A DNA stretch of 64,000 nt from a virus. The notes beneath the pieces were generated by a model. The model was given only the letters and a program-made list of their open reading frames with translations, did not search any database and had not been told where the DNA came from. The number at the start of each line of letters is the position of its first letter. The first letter of the stretch is position 1. The translations under genes and the position numbers were made by a program. Shown one piece after another: positions 10,223-17,625 of this stretch. Where the stretch lies: the IMG/VR virus record IMGVR_UViG_3300046170_000173. The stretch is one strand, 5' to 3'.

Positions 10223-10259
10223 AAAAGTGCGGATGCCTCGGTTCCCGCACTTTTTTTTT
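10223..10259 (+). terminator. Rho-independent terminator
   Basis: AAAAGTGCGG...CCGCAC stem followed by a T-run. Confidence 0.75.
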
Positions 10260-10260
10260 A

Positions 10261-10268
10261 TATAAATA
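10261..10268 (+). promoter_or_regulatory. T4-type late promoter for the 1628-aa repeat protein
   Basis: TATAAATA directly after the terminator, ~50 nt upstream of the GTG start. Confidence 0.75.
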
Positions 10269-10319: not shown

Positions 10320-13300
10320 GTGTCAGCATCTAGTATACCACTAAAACTTCAAAATGCTAATGGTGACCTACAAGAATTCACTCCATCGGATGAGCTTTAT
10401 CTATCCTTTGCAGTGGGACAAGCATTAGTTGCGGCCGCTTCTAATGACGTTGGTAATATCAGTTTAACTGATGGCCAATCAATCGGTTCGTTTGTAGATT
10501 CTTACTACAATGAAATATCTGGCACCCACCCTGCTTCACAAATAACGGGTGCCTCAGTGACCACCACTCTGAAGCAAGTGAGTGGCCCAGCAGACGAATC
10601 CGGTGCAGACTTTGTCCGCCCAGTAGGTTATTACGACGTTGATCCAAACCCAGGCTTCTACGAAATGGTAGATGGGGATATGGACAACCTAGCAGGTCGT
10701 GTTCTGTCTAACTTAGTACAGAACGACTATATCGGTACTTTCAAACTGTCCGCTACTCAACCAAGTGCAGACTATACAAAGTTTATTGACTCTGTATTCT
10801 CTGACACTCATGGTAACGGTGGGGCAGGTACCGTAGTAACAAACTATCACATTTGGATGCGTACTTCTATGACGGCAGTTGCTCCAGTTCGTCCAGTAGC
10901 GACAAGCTACGACGGTTCTGGTTTCAACGGTCTACGTGAAATGACGGATGCGCAGATTCAGTACACACTGGGTCAACGTATTAAGTCAATGCGTGCTACG
11001 TCAGGAGCGATTGGTTCATACCAGTTGCGTTCCACAGCACAAGGCGCACCGACAGTCCCAGGCTCATGGTTGCCTGTAGGTACTGCACAGAACACACGTC
11101 GAACTCCAGTTGATGTTGCATACGCAAGAACTCGCGTATCTTCATACAACCGTGCACGTGTTTCTGCATACACTCGTACTCGCGTATCTTCATACACGCG
11201 TAATAGTGTAAATACATTTAGTCGTACCTTTGTAGGAGACTACACTGGTGCATATTCACGCGACTTCGTAGGTAACTACTCGCGTGACTTTGTTGGGAAC
11301 TACTCGCGTACTCGCCCATCATCGTACTCAGGTACATATGCAAGAACTCGCGTATCATCGTTTGCACGTACTCGTTTAACAGCGTTTACTGGATACTTTG
11401 CGGGAACTTACTCACGCGCACGTGTTTCAGTTTATACACGTAACCGTGTAACACCATTCACTGGTACATTCTCACGTAACCGTGTTTCAACATACACTCG
11501 TGGTCGTGTATCATCTTACGCCGGTACTTATTCTCGTAACCGCGTTTCTTCATACGTTGCAGACTATACACGCAACCGTGTTTCAACATATTCTGGAACA
11601 TATTCGGGCACTTACTCCCGTCTACGTGTTTCTGCTTATTCTGGAACATACTCGCGTAACCGTGTTTCATCTTATGCTGGAACATATACGCGCACACGTG
11701 TATCTACTTACGCAACTGACTTTACCCGCACCCGTGAAGAGAACTTCGCAGGGACTTACACTGGTTACTATACTGGCGTATTCTCTCGTGCTCGTGTATC
11801 AACATATACGCGTAACCGTGTAACAGGTTTCGCAGGTAACTTCATTGGTAACTACTCTCGCAACTTCCAAGGTAACTATTCGCGTAACTTCGTGGGTAAC
11901 TACTCTCGTGGATTTGCTGGAGATTACGTAGGTAACTACTCTCGCGTATCAACACGTACATCAACTCGCACACGTTACAGTGCTTACGCAAGAACACGCA
12001 TCACTAACTATGTTGGTGACTTTACTCGTGATCGCGTCACTAACTTTGCGGGTAACTTTGTGGGCAACTATGCTCGCACCTTCGTAGGAAACTACGGTGG
12101 TAACTTTATTGGAAACTACGCTCGTGACTTCGTTGGAAACTTCGTTGGAAACTACGCTCGCGCATATGTAGGTAACTACTCTCGCGGATTCGTAGGTAAC
12201 TACGGTCGTAACTTCCTTGGAAACTTTGTCGGAAACTACAGTCGTAACTTCCTTGGTGACTTCACCGGAAACTACGCTCGTGGTTTCGTCGGTGACTTCG
12301 TTGGAGATTTCGTAGGTAACTACGCACGTACTTCAACTCGTACATCGACTCGCACACGTTACTCTGCATATGCTCGTACTCGCGCAACGAACTACACTCG
12401 CAACCGTGGTTCTGCTTACGCTCGTACATCTACTCGTACTCGTTACAGTGCATACGCAAGAACTCGTGCAACAAACTATACAAGAACTCGTGGTTCAGCT
12501 TACGCACGTACTCGTATCACTAACTACGTTGGTGACTTCGCGCGTACATCTACTCGTAGCAGACCATCTACGTTCTCTTATGCACGTACTCTATACTACG
12601 CAGGTGACTTCGTAGGTAACTATGGTCGTACTCGTGTAACAAACTATACTCGTGCTTCAGCGGTAGGCGTGACCTATACAGGTAACTACACACGTAACCT
12701 ATACTACGTTGGTAACTATGCTCGTGGATATGCAGGCAACTTCGTGGGTAACTACACACGTAACCGTGCATTTTCATACGTAGGTGACTATGCTCGTAAC
12801 CGTGCATTCTCATACGCAGGTAACTACACACGTACTCGCGCAACAAACTACACTCGTAATAGAGTTGTTGCTGGTAACTCTACTCGTGTAAGCACAAACG
12901 GTGCTGGTTTTGTTGGTAACTTTGCAGGTAACTATGCAGGCAACTTTGCTGGTAACTTTACACGATCTACATCATCAACACGTACATCAACACGTGTTTC
13001 TACTGGTGCTGGTGGTCAGGTAACCAACGCATATTCCGGAAATAACTGGTCGTTAACTACAGGTTGGCGTTCGGATAGTGAAGGTGGAACCAATTTTGTT
13101 ACCGTTTATATTAATGGAACTTTAGTTGGAGGCATGACAGGAAGCGGAACATCTCTGACTGCTGGCGGTGTAACATATTATCGTGCTGCTTGGCGAAACA
13201 CGAATGGATTCGTATCACATTATGGTGTTACTTACCAATCGGGTGGTGCCTCTTATACTGGTAACTTTACTGGTAACTTTACAGGAACTGCTACTTACAC

Positions 13301-15206
13301 TCGTACTTCTACAAGAACGTCAACACGTACTTCGACTCGTACCCGTAGTAGCACTTTCTACTACACAGGTGATTTTGCGAACTCAACAACTTATGTTGGA
13401 GATTTCGTAGGTAACTTCGGTGGCACGTATACTCGTACTCGTACCGGAAACTACACTGGTAACTACGCACGTACTCGCACTGGTAACTACACTGGTAACT
13501 ACTCACGTACTTCGACACGCACACGTTATAGTGCTTACGCAAGAACTCGTGTTGCGACAGGTACTTACACACGTGACCGCGCTGCGACACTATACTACAC
13601 AGGTGACTTTGTAGGTAACTTCGCTGGTGCATACTCACGCACATCTACCCGCACATCAACCAATACTGGTTACTACTCACGCACACTGACTTACGCAGGT
13701 AACTACGTAGGTAACTATGCGACAACGTTCACTGGCGACTTCGTCGGTAACTATGCGCGTAACTTTGCGGGTGATTATGTTGGTAACTTCGTAGGTAACT
13801 ACGCTCGTGGATTTGCTGGTAACTATGTCGGTAACTACGCTCGCACATTCGTGGGTGATTTCGTAGGTAACTTCGTAGGTAACTATGCACGTGCATACGC
13901 TGGTAACTTTGCTGGTGACTTCGTAGGTAACTACGCGCGTACTCGTGTAACTAACTACACCCGTACTCGTAACTCTGCGTACACACGTAATCGCACACAG
14001 AACTTTGCGAACTCTTACGCTCGCACACGTGAAACAAACTATACTGGTTACTACACACGTAACCGTGCATCCGCATACGCTCGTACTCGTTACAGTGCAT
14101 ACGCTCGCACACGTGTAACTAACTACGTCGGTGACTTCACACGCGATTCAACCCGCACATCTACTCGTAACCGTGGTTCTTCATACACACGTGATCGTGT
14201 AACTAACTTCGCTGGTAACTTCGTAGGAAACTACGCAACAACGTTTACCGGAAACTTCGTTGGTAACTACGCACGTGGATATGCAGGCGACTTCGCTGGT
14301 AACTACACTGGTGACTATGCTCGTACTTCAACGCGCACTCGTTACTCCGCATACGCTCGTACTCGTGTATCTGCATACGTCCGCAACCGTGGATCATCAT
14401 ACACCCGTGATCGTGTAACTAACTTTGCTGGTGACTTTGTAGGTAACTACTCTCGCACCTTCTCTGGTCAGTACACACGTCAGTTCGCTGGTGAGTATGT
14501 TGGTGATTACGTAGGAACGTTCGCAGGTAACTACGTTGGTAACTTCAGTCGTAACTTCGGTGGAAACTACGTCGGTAACTATGCACGTGGATTTGCTGGT
14601 AACTACGTAGGAGATTATACTCGTGGATTTGCTGGTGAGTACACTGGTGCTTATTCCGGAACATACTCTCGCGGTTTCGCAGGGAACTACGTAGGTAACT
14701 ACAACCGTGGATTCGTTGGTGAGTACACTGGTACTTACAACACAACGTTTACAGGTAACTACTCACGTGGATTCTCCGGACAGTACACACGCGACTTCGC
14801 TGGTGACTTTACTGGAAACTACGCAAGAACATTTGCTGGTGAGTATACTGGTGCATACGCACGTGACTTCGTAGGTAACTTTGTAGGTAACTACAACCGT
14901 GGATACGTTGGTGAGTACACTGGTACTTACTCACGTGACTTCGTAGGTAACTACTCTCGTGTCCGTGTATCTGCATACGCACGTGTTAGACCATCATCAT
15001 ACAGTGGCGCATACACGCGTGATCGTGTATCAACATACGTAGGTGACTTCACTGGTAACTACACTCGTGACTTCGGTGGTAACTACACTCGTAACTTTGC
15101 TGGTAACTACGCACGTAGCTTCGTCGGTAACTACATTGGTGCAACCATCTCTGACACGCAGACACACGTTACAGATGTTTACACACTATATGTAAGGGTT
15201 GCATAA
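10320..15206 (+). CDS. 1628-aa putative virion fibre with mirror-complementary tetrapeptide-repeat arms (predicted giant beta-hairpin)
   Basis: GTG start; late promoter; highly biased codons; aa 268-894 and 979-1605 are built of YxRx/RxSx/FxGN/STRT tetrads; globular N-terminal base and central tip domain. Confidence 0.85.
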   Translation: MSASSIPLKLQNANGDLQEFTPSDELYLSFAVGQALVAAASNDVGNISLTDGQSIGSFVDSYYNEISGTHPASQITGASVTTTLKQVSGPADESGADFVRPVGYYDVDPNPGFYEMVDGDMDNLAGRVLSNLVQNDYIGTFKLSATQPSADYTKFIDSVFSDTHGNGGAGTVVTNYHIWMRTSMTAVAPVRPVATSYDGSGFNGLREMTDAQIQYTLGQRIKSMRATSGAIGSYQLRSTAQGAPTVPGSWLPVGTAQNTRRTPVDVAYARTRVSSYNRARVSAYTRTRVSSYTRNSVNTFSRTFVGDYTGAYSRDFVGNYSRDFVGNYSRTRPSSYSGTYARTRVSSFARTRLTAFTGYFAGTYSRARVSVYTRNRVTPFTGTFSRNRVSTYTRGRVSSYAGTYSRNRVSSYVADYTRNRVSTYSGTYSGTYSRLRVSAYSGTYSRNRVSSYAGTYTRTRVSTYATDFTRTREENFAGTYTGYYTGVFSRARVSTYTRNRVTGFAGNFIGNYSRNFQGNYSRNFVGNYSRGFAGDYVGNYSRVSTRTSTRTRYSAYARTRITNYVGDFTRDRVTNFAGNFVGNYARTFVGNYGGNFIGNYARDFVGNFVGNYARAYVGNYSRGFVGNYGRNFLGNFVGNYSRNFLGDFTGNYARGFVGDFVGDFVGNYARTSTRTSTRTRYSAYARTRATNYTRNRGSAYARTSTRTRYSAYARTRATNYTRTRGSAYARTRITNYVGDFARTSTRSRPSTFSYARTLYYAGDFVGNYGRTRVTNYTRASAVGVTYTGNYTRNLYYVGNYARGYAGNFVGNYTRNRAFSYVGDYARNRAFSYAGNYTRTRATNYTRNRVVAGNSTRVSTNGAGFVGNFAGNYAGNFAGNFTRSTSSTRTSTRVSTGAGGQVTNAYSGNNWSLTTGWRSDSEGGTNFVTVYINGTLVGGMTGSGTSLTAGGVTYYRAAWRNTNGFVSHYGVTYQSGGASYTGNFTGNFTGTATYTRTSTRTSTRTSTRTRSSTFYYTGDFANSTTYVGDFVGNFGGTYTRTRTGNYTGNYARTRTGNYTGNYSRTSTRTRYSAYARTRVATGTYTRDRAATLYYTGDFVGNFAGAYSRTSTRTSTNTGYYSRTLTYAGNYVGNYATTFTGDFVGNYARNFAGDYVGNFVGNYARGFAGNYVGNYARTFVGDFVGNFVGNYARAYAGNFAGDFVGNYARTRVTNYTRTRNSAYTRNRTQNFANSYARTRETNYTGYYTRNRASAYARTRYSAYARTRVTNYVGDFTRDSTRTSTRNRGSSYTRDRVTNFAGNFVGNYATTFTGNFVGNYARGYAGDFAGNYTGDYARTSTRTRYSAYARTRVSAYVRNRGSSYTRDRVTNFAGDFVGNYSRTFSGQYTRQFAGEYVGDYVGTFAGNYVGNFSRNFGGNYVGNYARGFAGNYVGDYTRGFAGEYTGAYSGTYSRGFAGNYVGNYNRGFVGEYTGTYNTTFTGNYSRGFSGQYTRDFAGDFTGNYARTFAGEYTGAYARDFVGNFVGNYNRGYVGEYTGTYSRDFVGNYSRVRVSAYARVRPSSYSGAYTRDRVSTYVGDFTGNYTRDFGGNYTRNFAGNYARSFVGNYIGATISDTQTHVTDVYTLYVRVA
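11121..15134 (+). repeat. 12-bp-period degenerate coding repeat (two arms, 11121-13001 and 13254-15134)
   Basis: Recurrent ttcgtaggtaactac, tacgcacgtactcgt and similar units; interrupted by non-repetitive 13002-13253. Confidence 0.9.
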
Positions 15207-15243
15207 ACAACCCTTTTATGTTATAATGATTATCTGAATATAG

Positions 15244-15264
15244 GTGGGTCTTCGGACCCACTTT
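15244..15264 (+). terminator. Hairpin with CUUCGG tetraloop, probable terminator
   Basis: GTGGGTC-TTCG-GACCCAC-TTT. Confidence 0.6.
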
Positions 15265-15313
15265 ATTAGTCATATACATAGATTTGAATTGAACCCTTTT
15301 GGAGAATGAGTAA

Positions 15314-15775
15314 ATGAGTTATAGACGTTGGATGGACAACGCATTCTGGGAAACAGAAGAGAAGAAAGAACTAAACTGTATCCTAGAAATGGAAGATGAT
15401 ATGGGTCGTGTCACCCGTCAACAAATGTTGTTGGCAAGACATGATCGTGATGGAAATACCAACGAATTGTTTTCGGAAGTCGTAGACGCACTTGGTGAAG
15501 AGTTGATTGATAAGGAAACTACCGATCGAGTCGAACGCAAAGCTGCGGAGGCGGAAGAAGAGAAACAACGTGAATTGGAACATCAAAAGGCTAGGAAACT
15601 TGAAAAACTATTCAACTACAAACTAGAAGCGTTTGAGGTTGAGGAGATTAAGAACTCTAAAAACCGGAAGTTAAAGGCAAAATTGCGTCGTGCAAAATCT
15701 AAGATTGAAGTCGATATGTACTCAATTATGATTCTACAAGACCAACTAGAGGCCGAGACAGATGGAAAAGAGTAA
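15314..15775 (+). CDS. Hypothetical protein (charged, helical C-terminus)
   Basis: 153 aa ORF with GGAG RBS; overlaps the next gene. Confidence 0.7.
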   Translation: MSYRRWMDNAFWETEEKKELNCILEMEDDMGRVTRQQMLLARHDRDGNTNELFSEVVDALGEELIDKETTDRVERKAAEAEEEKQRELEHQKARKLEKLFNYKLEAFEVEEIKNSKNRKLKAKLRRAKSKIEVDMYSIMILQDQLEAETDGKE

Positions 15776-16499
15776 AGGTTTTATTATTGTTGCGTCTAAG
15801 AAACGCAACTTTTATTTGTACGCAATCAATCTTGCAGAGTCTCTCAGGGACTACTATGAACCGGAAGAGGAATGCAAGATTTGTTTGGTGACTGAGGAAC
15901 GATTCCTTGATGACCGTGGTAGAGATGTCGCAGACGATATTCTCTTATGTGACGATCACTACCGCGCTAAGTTATGGGGTATGGCGAAATCGCCGTATGA
16001 CCTAACGATGTATATTGATGCTGACATGGAAGTAGAGCATGAAGACATCGTCAAAGTATGGGACGAAATGAAAGATCACGATGTGGTCTTCACCGCTTTG
16101 ACAGATGACCGTGACTACATATATGCAGAACGTGACTTTGATACTCCGGAAGGCGTTTCTAAGTTCACACTATGCGGAGCAGTATGTTTATATGATATGT
16201 CTAAACCGATTGTACGTGAGTTCATGGATGATTGGTGGGACTTGACATTCAGACAAATGAATGACACTTGGTGGCCAGACGGGTACGTGGACAGTCTCAA
16301 ATCTTGGGATCAGTTCTCACTCTGGTGGTTGACTGAGAAAGAAGAAAAGTATAAGGATCTCAAGGTTGGTATCTTTGATGACGACTTGAGATGGAACTAC
16401 TACAACGCACTTAATTGGGCAATAACAAAACCAGAAACAGGGCCAGTGATTATACGTCACTTCTCTGCTGGTCTTAATAAGGATACACCAATCGTATGA
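15762..16499 (+). CDS. Putative GT-A fold glycosyltransferase
   Basis: KLWGMAKSPYDLTMYIDADM (DxD), ...WDQFSLW..., C-terminal IIRH; GT8/nucleotide-diphospho-sugar transferase-like layout. Confidence 0.6.
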   Translation: MEKSKGFIIVASKKRNFYLYAINLAESLRDYYEPEEECKICLVTEERFLDDRGRDVADDILLCDDHYRAKLWGMAKSPYDLTMYIDADMEVEHEDIVKVWDEMKDHDVVFTALTDDRDYIYAERDFDTPEGVSKFTLCGAVCLYDMSKPIVREFMDDWWDLTFRQMNDTWWPDGYVDSLKSWDQFSLWWLTEKEEKYKDLKVGIFDDDLRWNYYNALNWAITKPETGPVIIRHFSAGLNKDTPIV

Positions 16500-17203
16500 C
16501 ACAGTTAAACGACCAATATCTAAAGCACGTCGACGTTAAGAACCCTGAGTTGCTTGCGATTCTGGACAACTACGCTGGACTACCTAAGATTTCTGGATTT
16601 GCAGAGAACTGTCACTGCACGTCTAAGGAACGTATGCGTCAGCGTAACTGGTACGTTGGACCAAAGTACATGCAAGAGATTGTAGATGAGGGAACGCAAC
16701 ACGAAGGTTTCCCAGATGAGATGGTAGGTTATAACTTTAAACTATCAGATCGTGCACACCAAATGTTCGAATCAGATGCAGATCCAATCTTCAAGCGTGA
16801 CATGACGCACATGTTGTCGGATCTAAACGACAAGATGATGAACTTCCTGTCTGTCAAGCACAATGCGCTTGCAGCGGTATACCCACCAGGCGGTTTCATT
16901 GCATGGCACAACAACGCTAACGCCCCAGGCTTCAACCTAATCTTCTCTTATTCGGAGAGTGGTTCAGGTTGGTTCGAGTACATCCATCCGGAAACTAAAG
17001 AAGTTGTCCGTTGCCAAGACAAGCCAGGTCAGTGGACTTGCAAGGCGGCATACTTCGGACACTACGGTGAAGAAGAGAAACTAATGTATCACGCTGCATC
17101 TTCAGAAGATGATTGGCGTGTAACCGTTTCTTATGTCTTCGACTGGTCTGAGACTTCAGAAGAATTCCGTGAGATGGTACTAGAAGACATCGCTTCAGAA
17201 TAA
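16496..17203 (+). CDS. Putative double-stranded beta-helix (2OG-Fe(II)-like) oxygenase
   Basis: YPPGGFIAWHNN...MYHAA...R.TVSY pattern (HxN...H...R); paralog at 40153. Confidence 0.5.
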   Translation: MTQLNDQYLKHVDVKNPELLAILDNYAGLPKISGFAENCHCTSKERMRQRNWYVGPKYMQEIVDEGTQHEGFPDEMVGYNFKLSDRAHQMFESDADPIFKRDMTHMLSDLNDKMMNFLSVKHNALAAVYPPGGFIAWHNNANAPGFNLIFSYSESGSGWFEYIHPETKEVVRCQDKPGQWTCKAAYFGHYGEEEKLMYHAASSEDDWRVTVSYVFDWSETSEEFREMVLEDIASE

Positions 17204-17237: not shown

Positions 17238-17274
17238 GACACAGAACGTTTATACACTTAGGGTCTTGATGACT

Positions 17275-17625
17275 ATGGCAACTTACGAAGATTTCACAAT
17301 TGATCAAGGTGCGGACCTAGCTCTACAGATAGAGTTAGTGAATCCGGACGGATCTAAGAAAGATCTCACTGGTTACTCCGCTTCTGCAAAGATGAAAAAA
17401 ACTTACAGAAGTGAAGATTCTATAGATTTCACCGCCGTGATTCCTGATCCTTCACCCGAAGGGATCGTCACATTATCCCTTACACATTTACAAACCGATG
17501 CCCTATCCACACGCGGCAGATACGTCTATGATGTTGAAATTAGTTTCGTTGATGAAGACGGACATACTATCATAGAAAGAATACTAGAAGGTAAGATCAA
17601 AGTCAACCCTTCTGTCACAAGGTAA
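17275..17625 (+). CDS. Baseplate/structural protein (BppU-N-like)
   Basis: TIDQGADL...DLTGYSASAKMKK...GRYVYDVEI...RILEGKIKVNPSVTR; start chosen at ATG 17275. Confidence 0.6.
   Translation: MATYEDFTIDQGADLALQIELVNPDGSKKDLTGYSASAKMKKTYRSEDSIDFTAVIPDPSPEGIVTLSLTHLQTDALSTRGRYVYDVEISFVDEDGHTIIERILEGKIKVNPSVTR

Follow-up and report, generated by a model that had tools for sequence, protein, structure and literature searches.

The window, a 64,000-nucleotide stretch of viral DNA (IMG/VR record IMGVR_UViG_3300046170_000173), carries on its + strand an open reading frame (ORF) at positions 10320 to 15206 that starts with GTG, stops at 15204 to 15206, and encodes a protein of 1628 amino acids. We propose that this protein is a fold-back fibre, whose two chain ends would meet in one base domain while nearly everything between them forms a giant hairpin. 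The GTG start at 10320 is supported by homologues, which open with MSASSIPLK at the same residue. All parts of the protein are given here with their + strand coordinates. Base unit 1 (amino acids 6 to 100; 10335 to 10619) has the order strand-strand-helix-strand-hairpin with a loop of about 14 to 17 residues (NEISGTHPASQITG), as delineated by hhalign and by AlphaFold2 (AF2) models of homologues. Base unit 2 (amino acids 101 to 191; 10620 to 10892) repeats this order, with the 7-residue loop HGNGGAG and the closing strand TVVTNYHIWMR (Smith-Waterman, hhalign, and AF2 of homologues). The N-terminal part of base unit 3 (amino acids 192 to 267; 10893 to 11120) contains the same elements as far as the outgoing strand SWLPVGTAQNT (Smith-Waterman, hhalign, and split-chain contacts). 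There follow arm 1 (amino acids 268 to 894; 11121 to 13001), consisting of 627 residues of tetrapeptide repeats with an aromatic residue at every fourth position (composition, periodicity, and mirror register); a nonrepetitive, Gly/Thr-rich tip of 84 residues with three Trp (amino acids 895 to 978; 13002 to 13253), placed at the symmetry centre; and arm 2 (amino acids 979 to 1605; 13254 to 15134), again of 627 residues and mirror-complementary to arm 1 at i+j=1873 (residue-pair tests and paired indels). The chain ends in a C-terminal peptide (amino acids 1606 to 1628; 15135 to 15203) that bears the family motif G-x-T-I-x(6-7)-E-T-Y-T-L-Y-V-R-x-A and, from its conservation and predicted packing, would be the closing, central strand of the unit 3 sheet. 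Its final residues, amino acids 1615 to 1628, are THVTDVYTLYVRVA.

The initial annotation had described three related units in the N-terminal 267 residues, and the strings it quoted are all present: PLKLQ at amino acid 7, PVGYY at 101, VFSDT/HGNGGAG/TVVTNYHIWMR at 159 to 181, PVATSY at 192, and GTAQNT at 254 to 259. We compared the units both as single sequences (Smith-Waterman, 500 shuffles) and as profiles, using an alignment of 59 sequences (A1) and a larger, noisier one in window numbering (A2). As single sequences, units 2 and 3 matched with z=5.1 (0 of 500 shuffles as high), and units 1 and 2 reached only z=1.9. With A1, hhalign gave a probability of 89% (E 2e-6) for units 1 and 2, 95% (E 2e-8) for unit 1 against unit 3 plus the C-terminal peptide, and 96.5% (E 9e-10) for unit 2 against unit 3 plus the peptide, the last alignment reaching the final residue. 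With A2, the match of units 2 and 3 still stood at 94% (E 1e-7), and those of unit 1 fell to 33 to 54% (E 1e-4 to 5e-4). Homology between units 2 and 3 is thus robust, with unit 1 as the divergent member. Profile methods do align the three units, a failure of which the initial annotation had named as an outcome against its idea. The family consensus repeats the pattern, with FTDT, an 18-residue loop, and TTLYQ in unit 1; FTDTR, TDGT, and YNIYxR in unit 2; and ATDTR, the insert, and ETYTLYVR in unit 3. The hairpin loops measure 7 to 17 residues in units 1 and 2 versus 1338 residues in unit 3.

The same comparisons bear on the C-terminal peptide as the missing strand of unit 3. The A2 alignment agrees with the manual one of the initial annotation in setting VFSDT..HGNGGAG..NYHIWMR over GTAQNT..[insert]..VYTLYVR, and adding the peptide lengthened the hhalign alignments from 40 to 48 columns to 75, with a gain of 5 to 6 score units. 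The reversed peptide and segments of the arms, used as controls, gave no such extension. Taken by sequence alone, this match is suggestive and makes a closing strand plausible rather than proven. We carry the assignment instead on structural predictions and on the conservation of both protein ends together across the family.

All structural evidence in this study is prediction, namely AF2 models of two homologues and one split-chain run. For the homologue P0077 (397 residues, 59-row alignment), the mean predicted local distance difference test score (pLDDT) was 79 and the predicted template modelling score was 0.70, with residues 1 to 260 above 90 and the last 30 at 80 to 97; in this model, a strand at 238 to 264 is paired with a C-terminal strand at 367 to 395. 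The model of P0088 (476 residues) pairs 240 to 270 with 442 to 474, and its last 30 residues have a pLDDT of at least 86. Both models go through strand-strand-helix-strand-long strand-long strand three times over. For the window protein, we predicted amino acids 1 to 285 and 1585 to 1628 as two separate chains with alignment A2. The interaction prediction score from aligned errors (ipSAE) was 0.90 (runs 0.93, 0.90, and 0.90) versus 0.00 for the best of three controls. A mark of 0.90 is reached by 58 of 80 solved complexes and by 2 of 110 mismatched pairs, counts that are rough here, as our own alignment was used. Contact agreement between the runs was at least 68%, and the pLDDT of the partner was at least 49. 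No PDB entry is related by sequence, and a pass from memorised structure is therefore unlikely.

In the split-chain prediction, residues 1605 to 1628 contact residues 229 to 240 and 248 to 268 and also 140 to 143 and 58 to 72. The tightest pairs are 234-1624, 236-1623, and 232-1626 on one side and 253-1623, 250-1625, and 256-1621 on the other. Because the second number drops as the first rises in both sets of partners, the C-terminal strand would be central and antiparallel between IGSYQL (232 to 237) and WLPVGTA (250 to 256). By the hhalign correspondence, this predicted site is the one that TVVTNYHIWM occupies in unit 2. The idea that the last ~20 residues supply the closing strand of unit 3, so that the N and C termini meet, is thus upheld at the level of prediction: all predictions place the peptide within the N-terminal domain, and a failure to pack, which the initial annotation had named as the outcome that would count against it, was seen neither in P0077 and P0088 nor in the split-chain runs.

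We compared the P0077 and P0088 base models exhaustively with known structures by VIA-align. Both returned the same top four matches, all of them beta-prisms of the MABP (MVB12-associated beta-prism) type: Mp2Ba1 (8b6v; Z 7.1, root-mean-square deviation 3.8 Å, 122 residues aligned), Plu-MACPF (2qp2; Z 6.6 to 6.9), the MABP domain of MVB12B (3tow; Z 5.9), and the P2 domain of perforin-2/MPEG1 (6sb1; Z 4.9 to 5.0). The four align over 114 to 122 residues with deviations of 3.6 to 6.0 Å and are well separated from the next-best match, at Z 2.8; apicomplexan APC-beta prisms lie near Z 2.3 to 2.4. An internal three-fold repeat is seen in the base by hhalign, and its predicted beta core may resemble a pseudo-threefold beta-prism. 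Unlike the MABP domains, the base has no sequence-profile match in Pfam, carries three additional helices, and aligns over only ~120 of its ~290 residues; MABP domains, moreover, bind membranes in pore-forming or ESCRT proteins rather than virions. In MPEG1, an elongated beta-hairpin extending from the MABP domain bears a binding tip (PMC6753088), so that here too one hairpin of the prism is drawn out, although it is far shorter than 1338 residues. A beta-prism bearing a functional insertion is likewise described for Bap1 of Vibrio cholerae, where a 57-residue inserted loop serves adhesion (PMC12965690); that insertion is not a register-locked hairpin and belongs to a bacterial matrix protein, and we make the comparison by description without claiming homology. 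Separately, unit 3 with the C-terminal strand showed a weak recurrent match to T4 gp11 (1el6; Z 2.8, 49 residues, 22 to 26% identity) and another to a baseplate-cup chain of Klebsiella phage KP1 (9f4b_FD; Z 2.6), both probably due to chance. In the T4 baseplate, gp11 is the protein holding the short tail fibres.

The two ends of the protein are conserved together across a large family. Using amino acids 1 to 275 as the query against the whole metagenomic library, we retrieved 317 representative clusters that passed E<=1e-3, and 118 of these also passed E<=1e-30. Among the best 150 of the 317, the base domain is N-terminal in all but a few. About 115 of these ~150 members are complete, at 318 to 3347 amino acids, and nearly all of the complete ones stop with the C-terminal motif at their extreme C terminus; members lacking it are visibly truncated or frameshifted. 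The window lineage has one residue more in this peptide than the family. IMG/VR relatives of 1602, 1614, 1620, 1671, 1676, 1691, 1748, 1911, and 2282 residues and the 3347-residue protein of Phage C48C1 all have both ends in common. A distant subfamily, 28% identical to the window base, comprises 328 proteins at E<=1e-3, and the best 120 of these are almost all of 298 to 443 residues, two being truncated. In this subfamily, the stretch between ...DTR and G-L-T-V is only ~45 residues long, and the untruncated members listed terminate in ...SLWVRTA. Family size thus exceeds 600 clusters, counting 317 at 50% identity and 328 at 90% identity from the second search, with some overlap possible. Homologues with other insert lengths at this position, which the initial annotation had suggested seeking, are therefore abundant: across both subfamilies, the insert between the conserved ends ranges from about 45 to about 3060 residues, and nearly all complete members inspected end in the C-terminal motif, as ETYTLYVRxA or SLWVRTA.

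The family has gone without annotation. The window protein matched no Pfam family at E<=0.01 and no PHROG; 62 family members matched no Pfam family at E<=0.001, nor did three giant members. A search of the PDB with the family profile gave a single match at chance level (E 0.46). The ESM Atlas returned only unnamed viral clusters of 313 to 328 residues, which probably represent the short subfamily. We found no description of the family, or of a two-stranded hairpin fibre, in the searchable literature.

Several members depart from the common layout. In P0085 (2503 residues) and P0125 (1213 residues), the base match begins near residue 230 to 250, yet the proteins open with the unit 1 motif RPLKS..., and ~170 additional residues apparently lie inside the unit 1 hairpin loop; in that case, large inserts would be accepted in a second hairpin loop of the base as well. 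P0125 also continues for ~30 residues beyond its YTLYVR motif. The C48C1 protein (CDS0201, L001:2222-12265, 3347 residues) contains several nonrepetitive, apparently globular stretches of ~130 to 230 residues in its second arm only, as well as an exact tandem duplication of ~75 residues (KTRHRSYLYY...SGQY) that is either real or an assembly artefact.

Aromatic residues recur with period 4 in both arms (autocorrelation 0.5 to 0.7 at lags 4, 8, and 12), and tetrad positions 2 and 4 form a small, polar face. The 1254 arm residues include ~170 Arg (12 to 15%; 15% in arm 1) and no Lys, His, Cys, or Trp, giving net charges of +79 for arm 1 and +45 for arm 2. Strongly acidic arms, in which Asp, Glu, and Tyr abound, occur in other members of the family and have the same aromatic period of four residues. 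When residue i was paired with residue S-i, mutual information was highest, of 241 registers compared, at S=1873 (z 6.8). This register pairs 268 with 1605 and 894 with 979, which delimits the two 627-residue arms. It brings together 83 Arg:Gly, 0 Arg:Arg, and 10 Gly:Gly pairs versus 36 to 56, 17 to 36, and 12 to 25, respectively, at 13 other in-phase registers. With only the outer 150 pairs, registers differing by multiples of 4 are not separable. A naive mirror correlation of composition showed no peak at the tip and was superseded by the residue-pair tests. The relatives of 1602 to 2282 residues have the same register offset relative to their base and C-peptide anchors, and in a bias-corrected test, this offset was best in 22 of 101 family members versus 2.5 expected.

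When the window protein was aligned with its relatives one by one, insertions and deletions of equal size emerged at mirrored positions. Relative L008 has +30 residues at amino acid 853 and +30 at 1021 (the mirror of 853 being 1020). L005 and L011 both lack 28 residues at 674 and 28 at 1166 to 1193 (mirror range 1172 to 1199), and L011 additionally has +30 at 833 and +30 at 1037. L014 combines five such pairs (+8/+8, +12/+12, +172/+172, +12/+12, and -12/-12), and L012 has gained 348 residues at 396 to 428 and 348 at 1428 to 1447. Without antiparallel, in-register pairing of the arms, such indels would be difficult to account for, and they are direct evidence for symmetric length change. The fold-back topology thereby gains support that does not depend on the base, from the register with its 83 Arg:Gly and 0 Arg:Arg pairs and from the paired indels, and the latter also support the symmetric growth suggested by the initial annotation.

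The setting of the gene points to a late structural function. The ORF lies within a block of + strand genes, and a tail-fibre assembly chaperone gene (PF16778, E 1e-14 in Pfam) ends 120 nucleotides 5' of it. Farther upstream, genes match tail-fibre and baseplate-connector PHROGs, and tail-fibre-like genes flank the ORF. Reading the letters directly, we found a terminator-like hairpin 3' of the chaperone gene (10227 to 10259, + strand; GTGCGG...CCGCAC followed by T9). Just beyond it, at 10261 to 10268 on the + strand and 52 nucleotides 5' of the GTG start, stands TATAAATA. The consensus of T4-type late promoters is TATAAATA, and from the letters this copy presumably acts as a late promoter. A purine-rich AAAGAGAG directly precedes the GTG start. 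The closest genome, that of Phage C48C1 (156 kb, T4-like, Kyanoviridae; its record gives no host), is syntenic, with ~79% identity over head and tail genes, and was the sole match when both subfamily types were compared by tblastn with 50,697 phage genomes; no cultured phage among these has the gene. In the portal, sheath, and capsid genes, short segments match Synechococcus myoviruses at 74 to 81%. From this synteny and these matches, we conclude that the window derives from an uncultured T4-like marine phage. The chaperone, the PHROG matches of the neighbours, TATAAATA, and the C48C1 synteny together place the ORF among the late structural genes of a tail/baseplate/fibre module.

We consider the best explanation, with a probability of roughly 0.78, to be that the ORF is the gene for an accessory fibre, expressed late by an uncultured T4-like marine myovirus and shaped as a giant hairpin with a base formed from both termini and a 1338-residue loop between them. 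Sequence comparison establishes the unit homology, the co-conserved ends, the mirror register, the paired indels, and the late-gene and tail-module setting. Residues 1 to 267 and 1606 to 1628 would fold into one globular domain of three tandem units, each running from two short strands through a helix and another short strand to a long beta-hairpin, with a predicted beta-prism-like core. The loop of unit 3 would have expanded into two 627-residue arms and the 84-residue tip, and the returning chain is predicted to pack as the closing strand between 232 to 237 and 250 to 256. With its closing strand supplied by the end of the chain, the base would stay incomplete until the whole chain is made. 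It would then be a clasp joining the two arms and, probably, the virion-docking module as well. The arms would form a long two-stranded antiparallel ribbon in fixed register, with Arg opposite Gly and aromatic opposite aromatic residues, of up to ~210 nm if fully extended (627 residues, 3.3 to 3.4 Å apiece), and the Trp-containing tip would be displayed distally. We infer that the protein attaches to the virion, is monomeric, and uses its tip as a binding module. Fibre length would change through indels made in pairs, one in each arm. Since loops are short in units 1 and 2 as well as in the short subfamily, growth out of a short hairpin is more parsimonious than shrinkage, a judgement made from loop lengths rather than from a rooted tree.

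Several results weigh against this reading. As a single sequence, the C-terminal peptide did not match the closing strands of units 1 and 2 significantly (Smith-Waterman, 500 shuffles), and in the profile comparisons, the best of 30 column shuffles scored as high as the peptide itself. Covariation between base and C-terminal peptide was not enriched at the predicted interface (7 of the 30 top pairs versus 6.8 expected); the covariation signal mostly reflects the division into two subfamilies. The base hairpin has a register of i+j ~1876 to 1877 versus 1873 in the arms, a difference of 3 to 4, for which we assume a bulge of 3 to 4 residues near amino acids 1606 to 1620. The base-arm junction has 12 residues on the outgoing side (256 to 268) versus 16 on the returning side (1605 to 1621), and a register of ~1877 in the base accordingly becomes 1873 in the arms. 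Many distant members lack a clear mirror register, and the arms of the P0077 and P0088 models, at pLDDT below 50, have no confidently predicted conformation. As for the fold of the base, Z ~7 falls within the range that VIA-align calls common, and values below 8 may reflect merely a common arrangement; Foldseek with the P0077 model found nothing at E<=0.001 in the PDB or BFVD. For the former reason, we read the predicted likeness to MABP prisms as a probable sharing of architecture rather than as homology.

Other arrangements of the same chain have to be weighed against the monomeric hairpin. We think it unlikely that the protein is a domain-swapped oligomer, an antiparallel dimer or higher, with unit 3 of one copy completed by the C-terminal strand of another and the arms paired between chains. 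Although the packing predictions are blind to the difference between intra- and interchain contacts, and the split-chain run used two separate chains, AF2 closes the short homologues P0077 and P0088 within one chain with high confidence, and the ~45-residue loops of the short members read most simply as ordinary intramolecular hairpins. The mirror register and the paired indels are equally expected of an antiparallel homodimer, and phage fibres are usually oligomers; a swapped dimer, however, would bury both tips in the middle of the fibre. About as little credence goes to a trimer of hairpins, in which the termini would still meet at the base and three copies would lie side by side in a six-stranded antiparallel needle, as in the tip of T4 gp37. 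Fold-back needles do exist in trimeric fibres, and the small polar face of the arms (tetrad positions 2 and 4) could pack in such a core, but the base already has three-fold internal repetition, so that another three-fold assembly, though possible, is not needed. The gp37 needle, moreover, has a metal-binding HxH ladder, whereas neither arm contains a single His and the entire protein contains no HxH, and searches of Pfam and PHROG found no sequence similarity to gp37, Stf, or any fibre family. A conventional parallel fibre, with its termini at opposite ends and the C-terminal motif serving chaperone recognition, attachment, or cleavage, is highly improbable, for although conserved C-terminal modules with chaperone roles are common in tail fibres and the peptide resembles the other closing strands only weakly when taken alone, it leaves unexplained the absence of Arg:Arg pairs at one single antiparallel register, the mirror-paired indels, and three independent high-confidence packing predictions with clean controls.

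A close known counterpart of the giant hairpin is the distal tip of the T4 long tail fibre protein gp37, in which the polypeptide extends to a receptor-binding head before returning along an antiparallel needle to the collar (PMC7291167). Like gp37 and lambda Stf, the window protein belongs to a tail-fibre module with a chaperone gene, and a return of its chain from head to collar is indicated by the predicted packing of the C-terminal strand, the mirror register, and the paired indels. Unlike gp37, which is a homotrimer with a six-stranded needle and folds back in its distal part alone, it would fold back over the whole protein beyond the base, with 627-residue arms and a tetrad pattern of Arg:Gly and aromatic:aromatic pairs. 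With canonical trimeric fibres and spikes (T4 gp34-37, T7 gp17, and beta-helical spikes), it shares a late gene in the baseplate/tail-fibre region, a long repetitive shaft, a small nonrepetitive distal domain, and extreme length variation among relatives. Those fibres, in contrast, consist of parallel chains with the N terminus at the virion and the C terminus distal, whereas for the window protein, a single domain is predicted to hold both termini, and the repeats of its arms are mirror-complementary.

Fold-back fibre tips and beta-prisms with an extended hairpin are already known, from T4 gp37 and MPEG1, respectively. What is new is a fold-back that spans the whole protein beyond the base, a base of three-fold repeats closed by the C terminus, a simple cross-strand pattern, and length variation of ~60-fold through paired indels. 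Phage fibres have been described as parallel oligomers whose termini lie at opposite ends. The present family, large and unannotated, seems to construct its fibres differently, extending a single hairpin loop of a small repeat domain while both chain ends are kept in the base, and there is a fair chance that it merits the name of a new fibre class. Going further, we suggest tentatively, at somewhat less than even odds, that it represents an undescribed class of virion fibre: a single-chain, two-stranded, register-locked hairpin hundreds of residues long, following an Arg:Gly and aromatic:aromatic code, clasped by a pseudo-threefold domain made from both termini, and evolving in length by compensatory paired indels much as RNA stems evolve by paired substitutions. 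The pseudotrimeric base may let such a monomer occupy the socket of a trimeric fibre. Paired tetrad indels would be a genetically simple way of tuning fibre length, and as compensatory changes, they offer an unusually clean evolutionary read-out of long-range protein pairing. The code of the arms (no Lys, His, Cys, or Trp, and Arg never opposite Arg) could inform the design of long single-layer beta structures, and the result offers a starting point for annotating hundreds of genes that are labelled "hypothetical" in viromes from marine and fresh waters.

Downstream of the fibre gene, three overlapping genes on the + strand (15314 to 17203) encode proteins of 153, 245, and 235 amino acids. These had no Pfam, PHROG, or PDB match at the thresholds used, and assignments as a glycosyltransferase or an oxygenase found no support in the same searches. 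By blastp, their order is kept behind distant family members on L017, L019, and L020 (counterparts at L017:10983-12775, L019:3049-3501, and L020:6297-8249), with 29 to 41% identity, although the bases of those family members are themselves only 28 to 41% identical. A fourth downstream gene (17266 to 17625, 119 amino acids) is 58% identical to its counterpart on L020. The conserved downstream products are candidates for assembly factors, modifying enzymes, or docking partners. Between the fibre gene and these genes, at 15199 to 15265, the sequence, read directly, contains TTGCAT, a spacer, and TATAAT overlapping the fibre stop codon, followed by a GC-rich hairpin (GGTGGGTCTTCGGACCCAC) and a T-rich stretch.

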